DNA of 64,000 nucleotides from a virus. The notes under the pieces are model-generated. The model did not search any database and had not been told where the DNA came from. It worked only from the letters and a program-made list of their open reading frames with translations. The stretch spans positions 102,170 to 166,169 of the IMG/VR virus record IMGVR_UViG_3300029922_000007. One strand, 5' to 3'. Position numbers and translations under genes: made by a program. Positions 3,330 through 62,627 of this stretch are shown here, piece by piece; positions within the stretch are counted from its first letter, which is position 1, and each line of letters begins with the position of its first letter.

Positions 3330-6278
3330 TTACAGAATATCCCATCCTGAGCCGTTGGAAGCTAAAGTAAACGATTCGTACTGAACATTTTCATATTGGG
3401 CGCTGAATCCATCGATTAAATCCGATCCAAACGCGTTGATGTTTAGGTAATTTGACGTACTGTCAACCTTTTTTAGGTAGAAAATTCTTCCAGTTACGGT
3501 AGAAGCGGCTGGTAAATCAAAGTTAACTACTCCAGCAGTGCAATCCGCGCGTAAAATACAGTCGCCTGTAAGAACAGCGTAGGTAGTTGGACCGAACTTA
3601 GTGGAAACAGAAACGGGAGTCATGCTTCCGTTCAGTCCTGGAGCGCCAGGAGCACCAGCCGGACCAGCAGGACCGACAGCGTTAGCTCCATTGCCTCCTC
3701 CGCCACCAAGCCTAATTTCAACTTCGTCCCCAATAACTAAGCCGCCGCCAGGAAGAGTAAGAATCTGAATTTGATTAGAAGGAGTTCCAGGTGCGCCAAC
3801 TTCAGCGTAAGCTCCGGACTCCAAATCCATGAACTGACCGTTCAAGAATAAGAGGAGCGACCCTGCTCCAACAGTATACTGTTGTGGGATATTTCCTTCT
3901 CTGCTATTGTTAGGAAGAGTAAGGAAACTTCCATTAGCAACGGGACCATTCAAACTGGTCGGTGGGGTTGCGCCTGATGCGACTATCTCGATAACTTCAT
4001 CGTACGAAGGAGAATCCAAGAGGGCTTGGATATTCCCAATAGCTTTATCTAGCTCTTTGATAGCTAAGGTCAAACTATCGGAGTCATGTATAACGTAGTT
4101 ACCAGTGCCAGTCCCGGATTGAGAAGTAGTGATCGCAAATGGAGCGCCAACGTTTACATTGCTAGCACCATTCGAAGTTCCTGCAGATGTATTGGTTACT
4201 ACAAGTGTGCCAACCCCAGAAGTAGCTGAAAAGTCTCCAAATGGAGCTGAATTCAGAGCAAGAGCCAACTTTGTTGCAACTTGAGTGGCTGTATCTCCAG
4301 TTAAGATGTCCACTTCAATAATAGCATTCGTATTTGGAGCTACAGGAGCACTACCTACACCGCTAACTTTGAACCAAACAGCGTATTCGCGAGCGTCTGC
4401 AGAAGAGCTAATGAGGAAATACTGACCGCCAGTAATAGTTGATCCACCACCAGTGGTAAAATCGGAGATCTGAACGGTAGATCCTGGATTCATAGCCGCT
4501 ACATATTGTGGCTTAGAAGATGACGCCGATGGAGAACCGATATATTGCAGAAGCTCAAGAGAGGTAGTTCCGGAAACAGATACACTCTCGCCATTATCAA
4601 GTTCTTGTGATAGGAAGCGAATGTAAACTTTAGGATTTCCCCCATTGTCTTCTCGCAGGAACAGCCAGAAAACATCGGCCCCTACTGGAACAGAGGCGCG
4701 GGACGAAATTTGAATAGCGCGGGTATCGCCAACTGGAGATGGCGAAGCATGATAAGAGCCAAACGCATACTGGGCTTGAGATCCGCCAGCACCAGAATTG
4801 TCCCCAGCCGAAACATTGCTCGTAAGGGTAACTTGAGATCCAGAATTGACTGTCAAGATCTGGTAATAACCGGAAGAAGTATTTGAAGCGACCTTAATAA
4901 AGTCACCGGGAAGTAGTCCAGAAGTCCAGGTTACAGCGCCAACAGAATTGACAGTTGGGGAACCTGAAACAAAAATCAGGTTTGGAGCGATAGGGACTTC
5001 TCTATTAAGGAGAATATAGGCTACTTCATCATCCGTAAGTGTTATATCGGTAGAAGAAGGATTAGCAGCAATAGTATAGGTGAGGGAAGATCCGATGACA
5101 CGAATTTCAATCGGTTGATCCCAATTGATCTGCCCTGGAGAAGTGATAGCGCTCGGACTATAGAAACTTACGCCAATTCCAGTACCGTTTAGGGTAGCTG
5201 GTTGGGACATGGTAATCGTAGACCCAGCGATAGAAAGTATGGTAGCCCCTTGAGGAATACCAGTACCGAAGATGAAGTCCCCATTAACTAATCCAGCAGT
5301 AGAAGCTAGAGAGGTTAACTGATTGCTAGTGACAGCTATATTTCCGGTGGTAACTAGGATAGGATCAGAATTAGGTAGAATCCCGTTAGAAATTTCACCA
5401 CTGCCGGTAATAACAGTATTCCCGAGATCCTGGAAAAGACTTTGCAGGGAGGGAATTGGACCACCTCCACCGCCGCCTGCTCCTGAGAACCAATAGGGCG
5501 TGCCCTTGATTCCAAGAAGTTCGGACATGATGGCGTTCATCCAAGATTTCAGGCTGTCTAGTTGTTTATCGCCGCCTATAAAGGGGTTAGCGGAGCTATT
5601 AGTAGCACTGATGGTTACTGGAGACTGGGTTTGCCCTTGGCTCCAAGGATAGGTGAAGTTAGGGTTAGGGCTAATTCCACCAGTTTCGAGGGAATAGAGC
5701 ATCCAGCGGGGATCGGTGATAGTTAGGACGTTTCCGTTAGAATCTGTGGTTACGATAGCTGCTGGGAGGACGTTTTGAGCCCAAGGAGAGGTCGTGATGA
5801 TGATTTTGTAGGTGAGGGTTTGGGCTTCAGGTGCTATCTCAGTTATTTCGTCGTTGGCGGTTGCGTTCCAGATGTACTTGGTTACGTCTGTGCTAGGATC
5901 AGCGAATCGATTGTAATCAATACCCACATAGTTCGTGCTGGAAGCTGTGAAGGATCCGGAAACATTAGGATTTGTGGCTGCATTTAGGACCTGGTTAGCG
6001 GTCCCAAGTGGTACCTGGAAAACGGTGCCGCTGGCCGACGCATCAATATTTAAAATAGAGCCTGGGTCTACGATCATCTGTAGGCCGTTTGCGGCGGAGC
6101 CAATAGCTCCGGACGTAACCAGTGAGAACCCGCGAATGATGTAACCCTGCGAAGTTCCAGTAATAATGGCGGTTACTGCAGCATCCCAATCAGAACGGGA
6201 AGCGCTTTCGATGCGCCTAAGGCTGCTCACATCCAGGCGTTGCTCGCTCAAAATGTTAAGAGTGCTTAATACTGCCAT
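3330..6278 (-). CDS. Large baseplate-associated fibre/structural protein
   Basis: 982 aa, beta-rich, short collagen-like GPAGPAGAPGAPG stretch, C-terminal LPAAS..GRIFYLKKVD..SNGSGW fibre-type domain. Confidence 0.75.
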   Translation of the reverse strand: MAVLSTLNILSEQRLDVSSLRRIESASRSDWDAAVTAIITGTSQGYIIRGFSLVTSGAIGSAANGLQMIVDPGSILNIDASASGTVFQVPLGTANQVLNAATNPNVSGSFTASSTNYVGIDYNRFADPSTDVTKYIWNATANDEITEIAPEAQTLTYKIIITTSPWAQNVLPAAIVTTDSNGNVLTITDPRWMLYSLETGGISPNPNFTYPWSQGQTQSPVTISATNSSANPFIGGDKQLDSLKSWMNAIMSELLGIKGTPYWFSGAGGGGGGPIPSLQSLFQDLGNTVITGSGEISNGILPNSDPILVTTGNIAVTSNQLTSLASTAGLVNGDFIFGTGIPQGATILSIAGSTITMSQPATLNGTGIGVSFYSPSAITSPGQINWDQPIEIRVIGSSLTYTIAANPSSTDITLTDDEVAYILLNREVPIAPNLIFVSGSPTVNSVGAVTWTSGLLPGDFIKVASNTSSGYYQILTVNSGSQVTLTSNVSAGDNSGAGGSQAQYAFGSYHASPSPVGDTRAIQISSRASVPVGADVFWLFLREDNGGNPKVYIRFLSQELDNGESVSVSGTTSLELLQYIGSPSASSSKPQYVAAMNPGSTVQISDFTTGGGSTITGGQYFLISSSADAREYAVWFKVSGVGSAPVAPNTNAIIEVDILTGDTATQVATKLALALNSAPFGDFSATSGVGTLVVTNTSAGTSNGASNVNVGAPFAITTSQSGTGTGNYVIHDSDSLTLAIKELDKAIGNIQALLDSPSYDEVIEIVASGATPPTSLNGPVANGSFLTLPNNSREGNIPQQYTVGAGSLLLFLNGQFMDLESGAYAEVGAPGTPSNQIQILTLPGGGLVIGDEVEIRLGGGGGNGANAVGPAGPAGAPGAPGLNGSMTPVSVSTKFGPTTYAVLTGDCILRADCTAGVVNFDLPAASTVTGRIFYLKKVDSTSNYLNINAFGSDLIDGFSAQYENVQYESFTLASNGSGWDIL

Positions 6279-29054: not shown

Positions 29055-30934
29055 TGTGTCCTCGTAGACTTACTTATAGATGTTTTGGTGTTTGGTTCAG
29101 TAAAGGATTCACCGTCTGATATTGGCGTATCCGGATTATTAGGGGCATGTCTATAGACCGTATCTTGACTTTCAGATACTCCTGGTAGTATTTTAGTGGT
29201 GTCGAAATCGTTTTGGCGCTTATCATCGGCTCCGCCAAAAGCCATTTCGGAGTAGATTACTTGAGAACCATTCTCAATATCCATGCCATTACTAACTAAA
29301 ATTGTCGTCCTAAATTGCTTAATGCCGTTGGGCGCAATAGAACAAGAATGCGTCATCTGCTCAATGTGGTAAACTACATTATCGAACTGGAGATTGTCTC
29401 CGACAGCGATTGGTTCCGGTATACCTACATAGTTAATAGTTCCGCTGAATTTAAGATGCCCCCCAATTAAGGCGTCTCCTACGATTCTAGCCCAACCGGG
29501 GGCGCGAAAACTCTTTCTAGCAGCGGATACCTGTTCTCCAGGTTTAATGTCTGGAAACCTATCGAATTCGGAAGTTACTACGAAGGGACGTAACCCATTA
29601 CGTTGAACATCTTCTATGTCGTAGAGATAATTATTTCTGGCTATTTCGTCCGAGATATCATAGCCCGCTGGACCGTTTACAGATCTACCAAAATATTGAA
29701 CGAAGTTCTTCCTGGCCACATCATCCCTACCTAAATCAAAGCTAAAAGCTAAAGAGGGGTTTATGTTCCATCGAGGAAGATTCATAAATCTAGTTACCTT
29801 ATTACTGCCGTCCCTAATATCAAAATTATCGGTAGTAAAGGGTATCTGCCTAAGAACTACTGTTGGCATAACATACCCATTGGGCGCTATTCTAAAGCAC
29901 GTGTACATCTCATTCAATGGGGAATTTACGAATTGATTCAGTATGGACCAAGCCTGATTCTGATTCCAGTATTCGGGTTTCGCTACTGTTATGCCCTCAA
30001 CAGAATCGGCCAAAAAAATAAAACGGTCCTCGTCATTCTGATCCGGATCTACTCCTGTGGGATTCATTCCTTGAGCTAGAGTCTGATTAGCTCCAGAAGA
30101 ATAGCTCTGAATACCAAAAAGGAAATTGTAGACATCCTTAGCTGCCACAGCAGAATCCTGGTTTAGAAGGTTTCCCACTCCTTGTGGCATATAGAAATGA
30201 GTATTTGATGTGAATAAGCCTGCTTGAGGTTTACGCCCATTGTTCGTAAAACCTACCCCTATAAAGCTTTGAATTAGGGCACGGATGACACTTTGTATAT
30301 TGACTAGGGATTTTTCTGCTTGTATGTGTGCCCAATCTATGCCTATCAAACTTGCAAAAAGAAGTAGATTGTTGTCTTCTTTAGTAACAAGATATGGATT
30401 AAAATAGATAGAGTTATTGAATTCGGTAAAAGCGAAGGCGGTAACCTTTATAGCATACGTTTTTGTTCCGGACTGTGGGTCTACCATAAGAGACTTTCTT
30501 ACACTGGCTACCTTAAAAAAGCCTTTAAATCCATCATGGACACCATTAATGGGATCCATGGCTCTAGCTTGGTTGGCGACTTTTCTAGCGTGAGATTCCC
30601 AATTTAACATATTGACGAAAACAAAATCCCCAGGAGCCACTTCGGTTTCGTAATTAACGTCGGTCATCAGGAGAGTCGCCGACATAGAAGGGGTTAGTGT
30701 AGTTTTTGAATCCGATACGGTCAACTGAATACAGTCATTCTCCACAACTAGTGGCGGGGATATAGTGGTGGAGTTTACCTTGCCGTATGGATTAGTTCTT
30801 AGAGTGTCTCTGATCTCCCAACGCAAGAATGTTAAGACCCAAGCAGGACCTGTTTGATGTACGGAAAGATGTTCGTCTGCGCTAGAAGTATTGGGGTTAA
30901 TATCCTTTACGAAAGCGGTATTATTTATTGCCAT
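29051..30934 (-). CDS. Baseplate hub protein (gp27-like)
   Basis: Lies between tape measure and spike; VQRNGLRP..SGTINYVG..IAVGDN..YHIEQMTH motif. Confidence 0.7.
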   Translation of the reverse strand: MAINNTAFVKDINPNTSSADEHLSVHQTGPAWVLTFLRWEIRDTLRTNPYGKVNSTTISPPLVVENDCIQLTVSDSKTTLTPSMSATLLMTDVNYETEVAPGDFVFVNMLNWESHARKVANQARAMDPINGVHDGFKGFFKVASVRKSLMVDPQSGTKTYAIKVTAFAFTEFNNSIYFNPYLVTKEDNNLLLFASLIGIDWAHIQAEKSLVNIQSVIRALIQSFIGVGFTNNGRKPQAGLFTSNTHFYMPQGVGNLLNQDSAVAAKDVYNFLFGIQSYSSGANQTLAQGMNPTGVDPDQNDEDRFIFLADSVEGITVAKPEYWNQNQAWSILNQFVNSPLNEMYTCFRIAPNGYVMPTVVLRQIPFTTDNFDIRDGSNKVTRFMNLPRWNINPSLAFSFDLGRDDVARKNFVQYFGRSVNGPAGYDISDEIARNNYLYDIEDVQRNGLRPFVVTSEFDRFPDIKPGEQVSAARKSFRAPGWARIVGDALIGGHLKFSGTINYVGIPEPIAVGDNLQFDNVVYHIEQMTHSCSIAPNGIKQFRTTILVSNGMDIENGSQVIYSEMAFGGADDKRQNDFDTTKILPGVSESQDTVYRHAPNNPDTPISDGESFTEPNTKTSISKSTRTQ

Positions 30935-33279
30935 TATTTACCCGTCATGGAGTTGCTGCCAGAACTAGTTGAGCCTGACGACGGAACCGTTGGCGCGTCT
31001 CCAATGATGTCGTGGGCATGCGCGGCCCAATATGCGGGCTGTTGCGATGCTGGCAGGGATCTTAGGGCTGCGGTAAAAGCTTGCCATTTTTTGGTCATGT
31101 TTTCTACTTCTGTTGCAGCCGGAATTATTTGGTCCCTCATGTCTGTGAACATCTTATTGGTAATCTTAGATATTTCTGCCTGCATGGCATTTACTGTATC
31201 ACCCGGACGATCAGTACCGGCTCCTTCTAATTTCGTTCTAGTAGCTCCCTCTAATGCTTTCCTAGCGCCAGCAGTGTCACCAGTCGCCAAAGATTGGGCC
31301 ATAGCTTCTGCAGCTTTGGTATTCGTCCCAAACTCTTCGTGCTCATTTAGTTGCCATAGGGCAGCCTTCCCTAAGGCTAGTTTTCTACCCTTATCCGTTC
31401 CAACAAACTGCATTCCCTTTAATTGGTTTATAGCTGCATCTGATCCGGAATACTTATTAGCAGATGAGGCCGTATTTTTATTTGCAGCGTCTATCAATTG
31501 TTGTGACGAAACTCCAGCTTCATCGGCCAAAGCTTCTATTGTTGCGCCTCCAGGTCTTAACTGATCTACAGGAAGCCTAAATAGTGCGGCAGCAGAATTA
31601 CTCGATAACTTACTGAGAATAGGATCGGTCATCATCCCCCCAGCTCTCATCGTCCCTACTGGACCAGTTTGTGCCATGGACATTTGCCTATAAACATCAA
31701 ACGCGCTTTTCCCAGCTTCCATACCAGCAGTAGTTTTTTCTCCACCAAAAAATTTACCAAACGCGTTCATCATCTGGTCTACGTCAGCCCCAGAAGTAGC
31801 TCCAGATTGAGAAATAACATTGGCGGCCATTTCAACAAATTTTCGATTTTCTTCTACGAAGTCTGCCTGATTTACGCCTATTCTTGTTCCTTCTGATTGT
31901 ATCTTAATGAGGGCTTCTTTGCTAAGTTCGGAAGTTCCTAGAGTTCCGCTAAGTTTACCCATAACTTGCGGGGCATTCGTTAGATCAAAGGCTCTCTGAG
32001 CTTGATTTGCAGTAACTGCACCTCCTCTAGCCCCCAGAGTTGTCCCTCCAGCAGCCATAATTCCAGAAGCTGCTGCCATATTCTGCTCTTGTGTAAAACC
32101 TCCTCCAGTAAAATTAGTTCTAAACTCTTTCTCTCCTATTCCCATTTGTCTCTGGAAGTCCAAATTTCTCTGGGAATTCTTATAGAAGTCTTCAGCAGCA
32201 GCAACCCTTTCAGGTTGAGAATCTAATTGTCCTTGAAGGGATTTTTGCTGTTGTTCGGAAAGTAGATGCGCGTTTTGGGCAGAATATTCTCTCGCCCATT
32301 TAGGGTCGGCTCCTGGCATCATACTTCTAGCAAGAGGCCCAAGTCTTGGGTCGGACAGGTTGCTCATCATCCCCGCACCGGCACCACCCAAAGCGCCAAG
32401 GGCAGCCCCCCCTCCCATTCCAGCAGCCATAGTGAAAGGCGCGGCAAGACCTAGGGTCCCAGCCGTCAGATAAGCTCCTGCAGCGGTGCCGCCTACTAAT
32501 CCTGCAGTTCCGCCCGCCATACCGCCAAGAATAGGATTAGCGTAAAGATCTCGTAAGTCTTTAGATTTTTGGGCTTGAACTATTTTACTCGCCTCTTCAT
32601 ATGAAGCCTGACGCTCTGTCTTAAAAGCGGCATTGAAAGGGGTACGCCCATTATATAGAGCTGCGACGTCCTTACCCACAGTACCTTGCATCGCACTGCC
32701 AAAGGATGACTGGGCGTTTACGGTTGAGGAGGCCGACATCATAGCACTTCTGTTTGCGGTTTCGTATATCTTAGAAACCATTGCGGTGACTGTTCCGAGA
32801 ATGACTGGTAAGGCAACACCCATCATTCCTCCGCCAGCGAACCCTCCTTGGCCGGTATTAAAGGTGGTAGTTGTGCTACCCCCACCAGCAGAGCCTCCAC
32901 GCGGTTGCTGATTAGCTTTTACCTGAGCTTGTTTTTCTGCAGTTATCTTTTGCTCTATTTTAAGTATTTCGTCTCTAAAAGTCTTCTCTTTGGCCAATAT
33001 ATCTATTTTTGCTCTATTGATTGAGGCCTCTTGCATGCCCCTTTGAGTCATTTGATTTGTGGCTTGAGTGTGGGCTCTAAAAGCTTCTACTCCCGCACCT
33101 CCACCACCCGCTTTTTGAAAGGCGTCTTGTTGAGGAGTAACGATCTTACTTACGGGAACCTTCATTCCAGCAAAATCCTGCTGGATCTTCTTAACGGAAG
33201 CTGCGAACTCCTGCTCCATCTTCTTGAGAGCGGCTGCAACCTCGATAGAGAGGCCAATTGTTACTTTCTTGTCGGCCAT
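30934..33279 (-). CDS. Tape measure protein (putative)
   Basis: Ala/Gly/Gln-rich helical protein with Gly-zipper hydrophobic segments, upstream of the hub; GGAG SD before ATG 33279. Confidence 0.7.
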   Translation of the reverse strand: MADKKVTIGLSIEVAAALKKMEQEFAASVKKIQQDFAGMKVPVSKIVTPQQDAFQKAGGGGAGVEAFRAHTQATNQMTQRGMQEASINRAKIDILAKEKTFRDEILKIEQKITAEKQAQVKANQQPRGGSAGGGSTTTTFNTGQGGFAGGGMMGVALPVILGTVTAMVSKIYETANRSAMMSASSTVNAQSSFGSAMQGTVGKDVAALYNGRTPFNAAFKTERQASYEEASKIVQAQKSKDLRDLYANPILGGMAGGTAGLVGGTAAGAYLTAGTLGLAAPFTMAAGMGGGAALGALGGAGAGMMSNLSDPRLGPLARSMMPGADPKWAREYSAQNAHLLSEQQQKSLQGQLDSQPERVAAAEDFYKNSQRNLDFQRQMGIGEKEFRTNFTGGGFTQEQNMAAASGIMAAGGTTLGARGGAVTANQAQRAFDLTNAPQVMGKLSGTLGTSELSKEALIKIQSEGTRIGVNQADFVEENRKFVEMAANVISQSGATSGADVDQMMNAFGKFFGGEKTTAGMEAGKSAFDVYRQMSMAQTGPVGTMRAGGMMTDPILSKLSSNSAAALFRLPVDQLRPGGATIEALADEAGVSSQQLIDAANKNTASSANKYSGSDAAINQLKGMQFVGTDKGRKLALGKAALWQLNEHEEFGTNTKAAEAMAQSLATGDTAGARKALEGATRTKLEGAGTDRPGDTVNAMQAEISKITNKMFTDMRDQIIPAATEVENMTKKWQAFTAALRSLPASQQPAYWAAHAHDIIGDAPTVPSSGSTSSGSNSMTGK

Positions 33280-33309
33280 TGAAATTACTCCGAATTTGGA
33301 ACCCAATAG

Positions 33310-33324
33310 GATAAGATTGACGGT
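33310..33324 (-). promoter_or_regulatory. Putative late promoter (ACCGTCAATCTTATC)
   Basis: Identical to 24946-24960; heads the tape measure-hub-spike operon. Confidence 0.65.
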
Positions 33325-33354: not shown

Positions 33355-33383
33355 TTGACGTATGATAGATCATGGTTTACGAT
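33355..33383 (+). promoter_or_regulatory. Sigma70-type promoter (leaderless)
   Basis: TTGACG-17-TACGAT; ATG follows after 5 nt. Confidence 0.65.
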
Positions 33384-33388
33384 ATCTT

Positions 33389-33586
33389 ATGGCTAAGAAG
33401 TCCAAGAAAAAAGTTGAAAAGAAAGTAGAAAATAAGGAATTCATGAGTCGAATTAGGTACTTGAATATCCTTATTGATTGTAGCATGAAGAATGTTAAGG
33501 GTGATGGTTCTAGTTTGGACGACCTATTTAAGAGACAGGCTAGTCGTTTGTTGGATCAAAGAAAGAAACTTGAGGAAGATCAATGA
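33389..33586 (+). CDS. Hypothetical basic protein
   Basis: ATG at the predicted TSS; ATGA overlap with the next gene. Confidence 0.65.
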   Translation: MAKKSKKKVEKKVENKEFMSRIRYLNILIDCSMKNVKGDGSSLDDLFKRQASRLLDQRKKLEEDQ

Positions 33587-34062
33587 AATCATTAGGATTA
33601 TTCCTTTTAGTGGTTCTATTCCTTATCCCCACTTTTACTCGATCTGATGAAATGCTCTTCGATGTTGGCTTAGGGGCTCTTGATACCTCTTCTTCCATGA
33701 AGTTCTTTAGCGTCGGTATACAGGAAGATCTTTGGGGTCCGCTGAAGGAAAGGGCAAGTTGTGGTGGCTGGGTAGACTCTTCTGCAGGCGCTTCCTCTTC
33801 TGGGTTCTTTTCGGGCCAGTTAGGCTTTGAGGTCGATAGCGGTAGTTTGACTGGAGATGCGTTCTTTGGTCCAGGATCTATAACTCAGACAGATGTCCTA
33901 TTGGGCGGTTATTTTCAATTCGAGAGTAGTTTGGAACTAACCTTCCACGATATAAATAGGAACGGCATGGGAGTATTCTTTAGGCATTTTAGTTCTGCAG
34001 GATTTGAGATGCCAAACCAAGGCCGAGATGTTTTGGGATTAGAATTGATTTTTCCTTTTTAG
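33583..34062 (+). CDS. pagL: PagL-like lipid A 3-O-deacylase (outer-membrane beta-barrel)
   Basis: Signal peptide; LGG.FQF; HFSSAGFEMPNQGRD matches PagL H-x-S-x7-N-x3-E/D spacing; C-terminal Phe. Confidence 0.8.
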   Translation: MKSLGLFLLVVLFLIPTFTRSDEMLFDVGLGALDTSSSMKFFSVGIQEDLWGPLKERASCGGWVDSSAGASSSGFFSGQLGFEVDSGSLTGDAFFGPGSITQTDVLLGGYFQFESSLELTFHDINRNGMGVFFRHFSSAGFEMPNQGRDVLGLELIFPF

Positions 34063-34069
34063 GAGTTTT

Positions 34070-34466
34070 ATGACACGAGAAGACCTAGATAAGTTTCAGA
34101 AGCTGTGGATAGATATGATAACCAGCTGTAACGAATGGTGGCGAACTCCAATTATCGATAGTTATCCTGACAGCGATGCATTGGATTGTTTACGCTACAG
34201 TATTGGCTGTAACGGGTTTACTGTTGCTACTTTAAGTCCAAGTGCAAAAAATTTCCCTTTCTCAATTACCTTCAACCTATGTGGGCGTTGATTGGGGCTA
34301 TCAGGATGCTGGAGTCAAACACATTGGAGATGGTATTCGATGGCATGAAGCTACTGATTCGGGCATTAAATTACATAAAATGCTAAAATGCGAATGCGGC
34401 AAAGAAAAACATGGATTTGCAAATCACAGTCACTGGTGCGATATGGCGGATAATAGCAATACATAG
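34070..34466 (+). CDS. Hypothetical protein(s): two overlapping ORFs, possibly one frameshifted gene
   Basis: 34070-34291 has an SD; 34242-34466 lacks a good start but ends in CECG..HSHWC. Confidence 0.5.
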
Positions 34467-34493: not shown

Positions 34494-35120
34494 ATGGATC
34501 CTAAAGAATATGAACAGAATTGTCTTATAACTGAATCTAAAGAATTTACCCCTATTCATGATCGAATTAACGATCGAATGATTAGAATTCTCCACGCTGG
34601 CCTAGGAATGTCATCAGAACTTTCTGAGCTTACTGATGCTGCCTACTCGGCCACAAAAGAGAATGAGGTTGATTGGGTTAACGTATCGGAAGAATCGGCT
34701 GATATCTTGTGGTATTGTTCTATCGGTGTGAATTCATTAGGATTCGATCAAGATGAGATCTCGTCATTTGAAACAGACCCTCTTCCAGCTTCTTTCCGTA
34801 GTCCTGTACACGATACGACTATTTTAACTGCCGCTATCGCCGCTATCACTTGTTCTGTTGGTGAATTCAATGACCAAATTAAGAAGCACATGTTCTACGG
34901 TCGGAAACTGAATAAGGAAAAAATGAAGCAGTCTCTGCAGCAGATCTGTATGGGGATATCAGGAATTTGCATTGTATCCGGCACTACTATTTCCGATGCT
35001 CGCCAAACCAACATTAATAAGCTCAAGGCACGGTATGGGGAGAAGTTTAGTGAAGCAGCTGCCTTGAATCGTAATTTAGAAGTAGAACGTAAGATATTAG
35101 AAGATGGAGTAAAAGTATGA
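34494..35120 (+). CDS. MazG-like NTP pyrophosphohydrolase, tandem domains
   Basis: LGMSSELSELTD..EESADILWY; second half GEFNDQIKK..NINKLKARY. Confidence 0.8.
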   Translation: MDPKEYEQNCLITESKEFTPIHDRINDRMIRILHAGLGMSSELSELTDAAYSATKENEVDWVNVSEESADILWYCSIGVNSLGFDQDEISSFETDPLPASFRSPVHDTTILTAAIAAITCSVGEFNDQIKKHMFYGRKLNKEKMKQSLQQICMGISGICIVSGTTISDARQTNINKLKARYGEKFSEAAALNRNLEVERKILEDGVKV

Positions 35121-35371
35121 GAAGCCGAGATTTTGCCTATTGGTTGCAAGGATTTTTTGAGATTGATGGCGATGAGAATCGCCCTTTGACGGCAGAACAG
35201 GTTCGAAAGATCCGCAATCATCTTGCCATGGTCTTTAAACATGAGATCGATCCTAGTTTTGGGGATAAAAAGGTACAAGAAGAGTTGCACAAGGTCCATA
35301 CTGGGATTCAAGGTGTGGGCGGAGTACAAGGCATCTCTTTCCCTATCGGCACTACGATGCTTAACTGCTAA
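35117..35371 (+). CDS. Hypothetical phage protein
   Basis: ATGA overlap; DFAYWLQGFFE N-terminus. Confidence 0.7.
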   Translation: MRSRDFAYWLQGFFEIDGDENRPLTAEQVRKIRNHLAMVFKHEIDPSFGDKKVQEELHKVHTGIQGVGGVQGISFPIGTTMLNC

Positions 35372-35486
35372 TGGGTTCGGTCCACTTTCCCATCTATATT
35401 GCCTATGAAGACTACTGCGCCATACTTTTCGTATTGGTTCAGACAGGATTGCTGCACACTATGTGCGAGATTTTTGGGATGCCTTA

Positions 35487-55444: not shown

Positions 55445-56038
55445 ATGAAAGGCTGCAGGAACTTAACGGACGAAGAGATTGTCAATGTTTACAACGAGCT
55501 AAGCACTCCAAGGGATAAGAATATGTTTCTCGTCGGCGTGCTTACAGGCCTAAGAATTAGCGAACTCTTGAGTCTAAGGGTAAAGGATGTTTACGAAAAT
55601 GGTCGAATGTCAGAATGGATCACCGTAGCTAGAAAGAATACTAAGGGAAAGATCGAATCCAAGACCTTGCCCATGGTGGATGAGGCTCGAAACTCTTTGG
55701 AGAAGTTCATAAGCTCAATGGAAAATCCTAAGCCTACAGATCCACTCTTCAAGTCAACTCAGGGGGATAAAGCTATCTCTAGGGTTATGGCCCATAAGAT
55801 TTTAAAGAAAGCGTTTACTTCCCTAAAGATGACCGGAAAGCTTAGTACTCATAGCTGTAGGAAATCATTCGCTCAGAGGATCCATAAGGAGCTTGGAAAT
55901 CGAATTGAGAGAACACAGGTAGCTCTTTGCCATAAAAGCTTGTCGAGCACGGTTAGTTATATTCAGGTTGATAGGGAAGAAGTTGAGAATGGTATTCGGA
56001 ATGTTGGTGGATTTTTGGCTGGGAAGATTGTGGGGTAA
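55445..56038 (+). CDS. Tyrosine recombinase (catalytic domain only)
   Basis: TGLRISELL (R), TKG (K), HSCRK, CH, SY. Confidence 0.9.
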   Translation: MKGCRNLTDEEIVNVYNELSTPRDKNMFLVGVLTGLRISELLSLRVKDVYENGRMSEWITVARKNTKGKIESKTLPMVDEARNSLEKFISSMENPKPTDPLFKSTQGDKAISRVMAHKILKKAFTSLKMTGKLSTHSCRKSFAQRIHKELGNRIERTQVALCHKSLSSTVSYIQVDREEVENGIRNVGGFLAGKIVG

Positions 56039-61851: not shown

Positions 61852-62250
61852 ATGTTTAAAATCAATAGTATATCTCGTTTTAGTTCGGATACTGTCAAGG
61901 TTTCAATTGACTGCAATGCGCGTGCATGGGCGATAGCTAAAAAGACTGGCACGCTAGGCACGCTATACGGTATTGACGTATCTAATGCGGTGTATCAAAT
62001 GCATGGGGTTAAGGCTAGCAATCCGACCGTATCGGACGATAAAAGAGCTAGTATGACAGGGGTTAAGTCTATTGATCTTTATTACCGTGATTCCGAATGG
62101 TCCGCGCCTATCGATAACGTTATCCGCATGCCTAACCTTTTTGCCTCTAATGCCAGTGCTAAGGCTATTCGAGGGGATGGAGCTAGTCCTACGGATAGTG
62201 TGAATAATGTTATTGCGGTCGATTTCATTAATCGCCGCAAAATCGCTTGA
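61852..62250 (+). CDS. Hypothetical protein
   Basis: GGGAG SD. Confidence 0.7.
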   Translation: MFKINSISRFSSDTVKVSIDCNARAWAIAKKTGTLGTLYGIDVSNAVYQMHGVKASNPTVSDDKRASMTGVKSIDLYYRDSEWSAPIDNVIRMPNLFASNASAKAIRGDGASPTDSVNNVIAVDFINRRKIA

Positions 62251-62261
62251 AAGGGGATAAC

Positions 62262-62627
62262 GTGTTTAAATCATATAGGGAATTTACCTTGGATAAGCCA
62301 GTTAACACTAAACGTCTAAAGGTTAGGCATATACACGATACAAAATCTAAATTAGCTTGCACAATCGTACAGTTACACAATACTGACGTGGTACATAGGG
62401 TAAACGTCAATAATGTTGTGACCTTGAATAGTGGCGGATGGAAAACACCTAGCACTAAGGTCACAATGAATACGGCTATGCGTTTAATCTATGGGTCAAT
62501 TGCGCCATGCATCTATCAAAGCAAGGGTAAATGGTACGTGGAATTTAACAATGGAGATATTGAATTGTATTTTGACGGTATGATTATCGGTGGCGGATGC
62601 GGCGCACCATTTGCCGTATTGAATTGA
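62262..62627 (+). CDS. Hypothetical phage early protein
   Basis: AGGGG SD before GTG; LH.T.V..TLNSGGW.T.STK..MN motif. Confidence 0.7.
   Translation: MFKSYREFTLDKPVNTKRLKVRHIHDTKSKLACTIVQLHNTDVVHRVNVNNVVTLNSGGWKTPSTKVTMNTAMRLIYGSIAPCIYQSKGKWYVEFNNGDIELYFDGMIIGGGCGAPFAVLN

Follow-up and report, generated by a model that had tools for sequence, protein, structure and literature searches.

A candidate PagL-type lipid A deacylase encoded by a large environmental phage related to Myxococcus phage Mx1

Genes and regulatory features of the pagL locus

The DNA analysed here, referred to throughout as the window, is a stretch of 64,000 nucleotides that constitutes the final 64 kb of a 166,169-bp IMG/VR record. 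At positions 33583-34062, on the + strand, the window carries a gene (hereafter pagL) for a 159-residue protein that is predicted to consist of a signal peptide (residues 1-21) followed by an 8-stranded outer-membrane beta-barrel. As read from the sequence, the N-terminus begins with an MK n-region, continues through a 16-residue hydrophobic core (hydrophobic stretch MKSLGLFLLVVLFLIPTFTRS) and the residues TRS, and then reaches Asp22, which follows the predicted Sec signal and is invariant in homologues. The C-terminus, ...LGLELIFPF, has the aromatic final residue of a predicted outer-membrane protein insertion signal. The putative active-site segment RHFSSAGFEMPNQGRD (33982-34029, + strand; residues 134-149) was delimited by alignment to Pseudomonas aeruginosa PagL. 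On the same strand it holds the predicted catalytic residues His135 (33985-87), Ser137 (33991-93), Asn145 (34015-17) and Asp149 (34027-29), such that Asn145 and Asp149 lie at +10 and +14 relative to His135. An earlier note on this DNA, prepared by a model from the letters and a list of open reading frames (ORFs), had described the ORF, the signal peptide, the terminal Phe and the motif, and all are present in the 159-aa translation. A Shine-Dalgarno sequence, GAGGAAG (33571-33577, + strand), can be read 5 nt 5' of the pagL ATG, and this start codon overlaps the stop codon of the preceding ORF (ATGA).

The pagL gene is the second in a tightly packed + strand cassette that is wedged between two - strand blocks. 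The cassette, counted as six genes, encodes a Lys-rich protein, PagL, a Cys/His-rich protein, a MazG-like protein and an 84-aa protein, and is divergent from a tail gene of 790 aa (30934-33306, - strand). The first cassette gene is the small Lys-rich ORF (65 aa; 33389-33586, + strand), which the ORF list starts at 33362. It belongs to no Pfam or PHROG family, and its 65-aa product is also called on a JGI contig. Following pagL is the Cys/His-rich gene (34070-34466, + strand), which is split here into ORFs of 73 aa and 74 aa, whereas sister strains L038 and L040 carry a single-ORF form (129 aa) with a Cys/His-rich C-terminus. The split is caused by an additional A within a run of A residues around position 34250 (GCAAAAAATTTCC versus GCAAAGATTCC). 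Independent contigs carry the split form as well, so it is a real variant, either a pseudogene or a site of +1 frameshifting. The remaining genes, co-oriented with pagL, encode a MazG-like nucleotide pyrophosphatase (34494-35120, + strand; phrog_229, E 3.6e-29) and the 84-aa protein that ends the cassette (35117-35371, + strand; phrog_28500, E 1.1e-7). A terminator-like hairpin followed by a T-run (35453-35477, + strand), identified by consensus scan only, lies between the cassette and a convergent metallophosphoesterase gene.

Heading the cassette is a sigma70-type promoter-like site, TTGACG-17 nt-TACGAT (33355-33383, + strand), which was recognized by a consensus scan together with a comparison of related phages. 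The earlier note had placed pagL in a predicted sigma70 operon, and the two approaches bear on that prediction differently. A plain promoter scan lends it nothing, as the 6 sites found compare with 6.2 expected and are thus at chance level. The comparison, by contrast, argues for it. Counterparts of the site are found in the related viral contigs L007 (TTGACT-17-TATTCT), L008 (TTGACG-17-TACTTT) and L036 (TTGACA-17-TATCGT), such that the pattern TTGACN-17-TAnnnT is held at a constant 5-6 nt from an ATG in four diverged phages that differ in the sequence of the spacer. The pattern occurs 24 times in the genome versus 5.6 +/- 2.3 times expected, an approximately 4-fold enrichment. The homologues of the Lys-rich protein begin MAKKSKKK, MAVRSKKK, MAISKKSKKK or MAKRSKTKKK, 5-6 nt past the -10 element. 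Because the distance between the -10 element and the ATG is conserved, the Lys-rich ORF likely starts at 33389, and its mRNA is possibly leaderless.

A different element is associated with the structural genes. The motif CAATCTTA, found at 33312-33319 on the - strand just 5' of the 790-aa tail gene and outside the pagL cassette, is a candidate late-promoter element. It is present in 21 copies in the genome compared with 9.7 expected, and 19 of these are on the structural-gene (-) strand, mostly directly 5' of gene starts. The site near the tail gene is conserved as ATAAGATTGACGG in L007, L008 and L036. The phage also encodes, at genome positions 64712-65749, a homologue with 34% identity to the protein annotated in Mx1 as 'putative RNA polymerase sigma factor', and CAATCTTA is probably read with this sigma factor of the phage itself. 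The pagL gene, judging from the promoter-like site upstream, would be transcribed by unmodified host RNA polymerase, and so would be expressed early or constitutively. By the same reasoning, the host would rely on canonical sigma70 promoters, an argument against its belonging to Bacteroidota.

Sequence and structural relationship to PagL

The protein was compared with known families, beginning with the Pfam PagL profile that the earlier note had proposed as a check. PF09411 (PagL) was the sole family returned by a Pfam scan to E 10, in which HMMER filters remove most matches above E ~0.1. The match scores 30.1 bits (E 5.9e-7), above the curated gathering cut-off of 23 bits, and aligns residues 76-155 with positions 48-133 of the 136-position profile; it was recovered again, with 29.9 bits, in a genome-wide search. 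PHROGs v4 and NCBIfam yielded no family for the 159-aa protein, which falls below every NCBIfam model. When phmmer was used to search all PDB chains, P. aeruginosa PagL (2erv) ranked first, weakly, at E 0.2. Identity to this sole solved PagL is only ~20%. PagL is described as using a Ser-His-Glu triad with an oxyanion-hole Asn (PMC4402001, review), and the H-F-S, N and D of the phage protein align on H-Y-S, N and E of 2erv. The HMMER alignment to 2erv_A agrees with the spacing that the earlier note had given for PagL, in which His-x-Ser is followed by an Asn (+10) and then by an acidic residue (+14). The acidic position of the triad is Asp149 here versus Glu in P. aeruginosa PagL, which is a conservative change.

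When 1.84 billion representatives were searched exhaustively, 324 representative homologues were recovered at E<=1e-3. A profile built from 99 homologues matches 2erv at E 5e-10, and the only other PDB chain listed has E 0.3. Despite a mean identity of ~30% among these 99 sequences, Ser137 and Asp104 are invariant, and His135, Asn145, Gly147 and Arg148 are each at least 90% conserved. In the 10 closest homologues, the H, S and N residues are invariant and D149 is 90% conserved; the close homologue P0004 carries Asn instead of Asp at position 149. Comparison with natural variants of 85-87% nucleotide identity gives dN/dS values of 0.08-0.12. The gene is strongly conserved and under purifying selection.

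An AlphaFold2 model, fed with the 99-sequence alignment, exhibits a pLDDT of 95.1 and consists of one N-terminal helix at residues 2-20 (the signal) and 8 strands, which bears out the alternating beta-strand pattern noticed earlier in the translation. Foldseek returned 2erv as the top match for this model (E 2.5e-6), and VIA-align superimposed the two with Z 19.5 and an rmsd of 1.6 Å over 133/150 residues. Generic 8-stranded barrels (OprF-N, OmpA and NspA) reach Z 15-16, 3 Z units below PagL, and the natural barrels OprF-N, OmpA, NspA and OmpW deviate from the model by 2.5-3.5 Å. The de novo designed barrel 6x9z fits at 1.9 Å over 114 residues with Z 16.2. The best matches in BFVD are generic phage outer-membrane barrels of 10-16% identity that are not recognisable as PagL. 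In the strand order of the model, His135 and Ser137 end strand 7, Asn145 resides in extracellular loop L4 and Asp149 opens strand 8, and this order positions the predicted active site at the outer-leaflet rim, as in PagL.

Two other assignments were considered and set aside. LpxR (PF09982) needs 12 strands and ~300 aa, whereas the phage protein has 8 strands and 159 aa, and no LpxR match was present in the Pfam scan to E 10. A barrel of the Ail/Lom/OmpX type is disfavoured because that scan gave PagL only and because OmpX and Ail fit the model far more poorly (Z 10.5-11.1 versus 19.5; rmsd 3.3-3.4 Å). The Pfam match, the profile-to-PDB comparison, the predicted fold, the aligned and conserved catalytic residues (H-x-S with the acid and Asn) and the signal features all agree with the family named in the earlier note, far beyond what chance would give, and they support the assignment of the protein as a member of the PagL family.

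The phage, its relatives and the distribution of related proteins

The IMG/VR record has a completeness rating of 100% at 166,169 bp. Its structural and packaging genes include those for the major capsid protein, portal, large terminase, prohead protease, sheath, tail fibre and baseplate proteins, and RNR, RNA ligase, PNK, NAMPT and helicases are encoded as well; the genome is that of an uncultured, bona fide complete tailed phage. Its nearest, and only, cultured relative is the distant Myxococcus phage Mx1 (OR576727). The two genomes are similar in size (169.6 kb for Mx1 versus 166.2 kb), and their structural and replication genes are homologous and largely colinear, with identities to Mx1 of 47% for the major capsid protein, 42% for the portal, 40% for the sheath, 31% for the large terminase and 34% for the sigma factor. 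They differ in GC content, which is 55-57% in Mx1 and 44% here. Over the first 100 kb of Mx1, ~22 genes are held in common at 21-47% identity, mostly in one colinear block. A profile search (E<=0.1) found no PagL-like gene in Mx1, which implies that pagL is dispensable for such phages.

Five members of the phage group to which this genome belongs are represented by viral contigs (L006-L009 and L036; four from IMG/VR and one from Logan), two of which are complete at 162-163 kb. Each carries one PagL gene adjoining a homologue of the 790-aa tail gene, and the neighbouring proteins are 27-72% identical to those encoded here. Among these related phages, the cassette is rearranged around a constant pagL. 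The identical protein, with identical neighbours, also occurs in several data sets, on 11 independent metagenome contigs in all, and the GC content of the gene (43.8%) matches that of the genome (43.7%).

Several further features of these genomes were recorded. An extra small hydrophobic, membrane-type ORF is present between the Lys-rich ORF and pagL in L008 (9826-10000) and L036 (9784-9969), and in L006 and L009 pagL runs in the orientation of the tail genes and is preceded by another gene. A 197-aa ORF in the window (55445-56038, + strand) matches the catalytic domain of tyrosine recombinases (Phage_integrase, PF00589; E 8.5e-22) but is too short for a classical integrase, and might reflect either a temperate lifestyle or dimer resolution; a sigma70-like site is located just 5' of it. 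No serine recombinase was found in the genome. ARAGORN identified no tRNA within the 64-kb window; tRNA-like sequences occur outside the window in gene-upstream regions at genome positions 3355-3450 and 62196-62340.

Peptide patterns specific to the clade of this protein have no match in 185,579 GTDB species genomes. A wider pattern recovered one full-length bacterial match, in a Bdellovibrionota metagenome-assembled genome (MAG), and three C-terminal fragments in larger Cytophagales proteins. A profile search of 301 Bdellovibrionota genomes gave 4 clear members, and 6 at E<=1e-3. The gene in the Bdellovibrionota MAG is chromosomal and adjoins genes for SurE, sugar epimerases and a glycosyltransferase of family GT4, a neighbourhood devoted to envelope polysaccharide. 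The Cytophagales matches suggest larger proteins with a PagL-like C-terminal end. In these sequences (L021-L023; Spirosoma, Pontibacter), the profile covers only the C-terminal 30-50 residues, corresponding to the H-x-S...N-x-G-R-D region, of ORFs of 364-380 aa.

Two more distant homologues on long contigs occur in other phage types. One of these genes resides between those for DNA polymerase A and DnaB helicase, and the other is found among genes for DenV, HNH, peptide deformylase and thymidylate synthase. A quick maximum-likelihood tree places the query within a 23-sequence clade (SH-aLRT 99), in which all members whose context was seen (7/7) are viral. Bdellovibrionota sequences are scattered outside this clade in the tree, most of whose deep branches are unsupported. 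Searches of 50,697 GenBank phage records, by blastn with 8 kb around the gene and by tblastn with the family members P0001, P0160 and P0041, gave no match, and we found no description of a phage, prophage or viral PagL in the literature. We propose, tentatively and with rather less assurance than attaches to the activity discussed below, that PagL enzymes may form an unpublished class carried by unrelated phage types (Mx1-like myoviruses, DNA-polA/DnaB-type phages and phages carrying DenV and ThyA). Its members might be expressed from host-type promoters during infection and edit lipid A, in addition to LPS sugars, as a device for receptor editing or exclusion, or for loosening the outer membrane. 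The present case contributes an Mx1-like lineage, synteny across six phages, dN/dS values and a conserved promoter.

Proposed function and comparison with known systems

We favour, with some confidence, the interpretation that the protein is an active lipid A 3-O-deacylase placed in the host outer membrane during infection, and, with the gene intact and strongly conserved, editing of the lipid anchor of host LPS by this phage is probable. In this scheme, the cassette would be transcribed from the host-type sigma70 promoter, before or apart from the structural genes served by the CAATCTTA motif, and PagL translation could be coupled to the upstream ORF through the ATGA overlap and the strong Shine-Dalgarno sequence. 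The precursor would be exported by Sec and cleaved before Asp22, after which BAM would insert the 8-stranded barrel by way of the C-terminal ...ELIFPF signal. At the outer-leaflet rim, Ser137 is predicted to act as the nucleophile, His135 as the base and Asp149 as the acid, with Asn145 contributing the oxyanion hole, such that the enzyme would release the 3-O-acyl chain of lipid A by hydrolysis of its ester bond. With fewer acyl chains, the LPS is expected to alter the packing of the outer membrane. A caution comes from Salmonella, in which PagL lies latent in a membrane whose LPS carries other modifications (PMC4402001), and the presence of the gene therefore does not guarantee activity.

Several benefits to the phage can be envisaged, and we infer them, as we do export, activity, substrate and timing, from the features described above. 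The leading pay-off would be a change in the LPS surface used by phages, which could bring about superinfection exclusion or spare progeny from adsorbing to debris. We rank receptor editing and superinfection exclusion first because pagL appears to have early-type expression together with MazG, and because the acylation state of lipid A affects phage genome entry in P. aeruginosa (PMC10783630). As a second possibility, the outer membrane might be loosened or vesiculated ahead of lysis. Evasion of immune recognition, which had also been suggested, was discarded, as evasion of the TLR4 type is irrelevant for an environmental phage. An LPS-bearing (diderm) host, as the earlier note had supposed, is a fair inference.

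Other explanations for this gene must be weighed against a lipid A deacylase. A serine esterase with the PagL fold and the same catalytic machinery might act on a different outer-membrane lipid, and candidate substrates include an outer-leaflet phospholipid or lysophospholipid, ornithine or another aminolipid, or lipid A itself at a different ester position. Such a change of substrate would fit the ~20% identity to characterised PagL, the subfamily-specific GRD sequence (Arg148, where PagL has Ile), the clade-specific GIQEDLW motif and the position of the protein below every NCBIfam model. We nevertheless judge it unlikely, as PagL ranks first in every structural and sequence comparison, one cellular relative is found amid envelope-polysaccharide genes, and we know of no member of PF09411 that has another substrate.

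A loss of catalysis is considerably less probable. The protein would then be a small non-enzymatic outer-membrane barrel resembling lambda Lom or Ail/OmpX, functioning in surface change, exclusion or adhesion, and its PagL motif would be merely inherited. The invariance of Ser137 and the conservation of His135, Asn145, Gly147 and Arg148 (at least 90% in the 99 homologues) speak against this, as do the dN/dS of ~0.1 and the return of PagL as the only family in the Pfam scan to E 10. Small 8-stranded barrels are admittedly common in phage genomes (many BFVD matches at E<1e-3), and OprF-N, OmpA and NspA also attain Z 15-16, but PagL stands 3 Z units above these generic barrels and fits at 1.6 Å versus 2.5-3.5 Å for natural ones. 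That the gene belongs to the host and entered the contig through mis-assembly or contamination is barely credible, even though the record derives from a metagenome assembly and is classed 'linear'. The identical gene and neighbours recur on the 11 contigs, the locus is syntenic in the five diverged viral contigs (including the two complete genomes of 162-163 kb), gene and genome GC are equal, phage genes lie on both flanks, and the clade-specific patterns are absent from the 185,579 GTDB species genomes. Mis-assembly or recent capture is very unlikely.

Among known systems, the phage protein can be compared most directly with PagL itself (P. aeruginosa 2ERV, Salmonella, Bordetella; PF09411). 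Both are ~150-residue, 8-stranded outer-membrane barrels with a signal peptide and a C-terminal aromatic residue, and both carry His-x-Ser followed by Asn (+10) and an acidic residue (+14) at what is, or is predicted to be, the extracellular rim. They differ in that PagL has Gly-Ile-Glu where the phage protein has a conserved Gly-Arg-Asp, and in that the phage protein has a clade-specific GIQEDLW motif. In addition, PagL is a PhoPQ-regulated chromosomal gene, whereas the phage gene apparently has a constitutive host-type promoter.

Phage seroconversion enzymes modify LPS, and they and small outer-membrane barrels of the lambda Lom kind alter the cell surface, in many cases so as to block superinfection. 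Lom, of the Ail/OmpX family, has in common with the phage PagL the architecture of an 8-stranded outer-membrane barrel. However, seroconversion enzymes act on O-antigen sugars and Lom-type proteins are without a catalytic site, whereas the phage PagL has a predicted hydrolase triad and would target the lipid anchor. Remodelling of LPS by phages is known for O-antigen sugars, and for lipid A the sole known case is LpxR of EHEC prophages. If confirmed in large environmental phages, a conserved deacylase of the PagL type would extend such remodelling to the membrane anchor, with consequences for competition between phages, receptor masking, vesiculation of the outer membrane and lysis. The gene would also indicate that the host is a diderm whose lipid A is ester-linked and whose sigma70 promoters are canonical, and the protein is small and self-contained.

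LpxR provides the precedent for a lipid A deacylase carried as phage cargo. The gene for this lipid A 3'-O-deacylase (PF09982) adjoins the Q antiterminator gene in lambdoid prophages of EHEC and EPEC (bioRxiv 10.64898/2026.05.13.724894; PMC6863877). LpxR is unrelated in structure: its 319 aa form a 12-stranded barrel that depends on Ca2+ and takes off the 3'-acyloxyacyl group. It serves lysogenic conversion by temperate phages of an animal pathogen, whereas the candidate enzyme described here is encoded by a 166-kb Mx1-like environmental phage.
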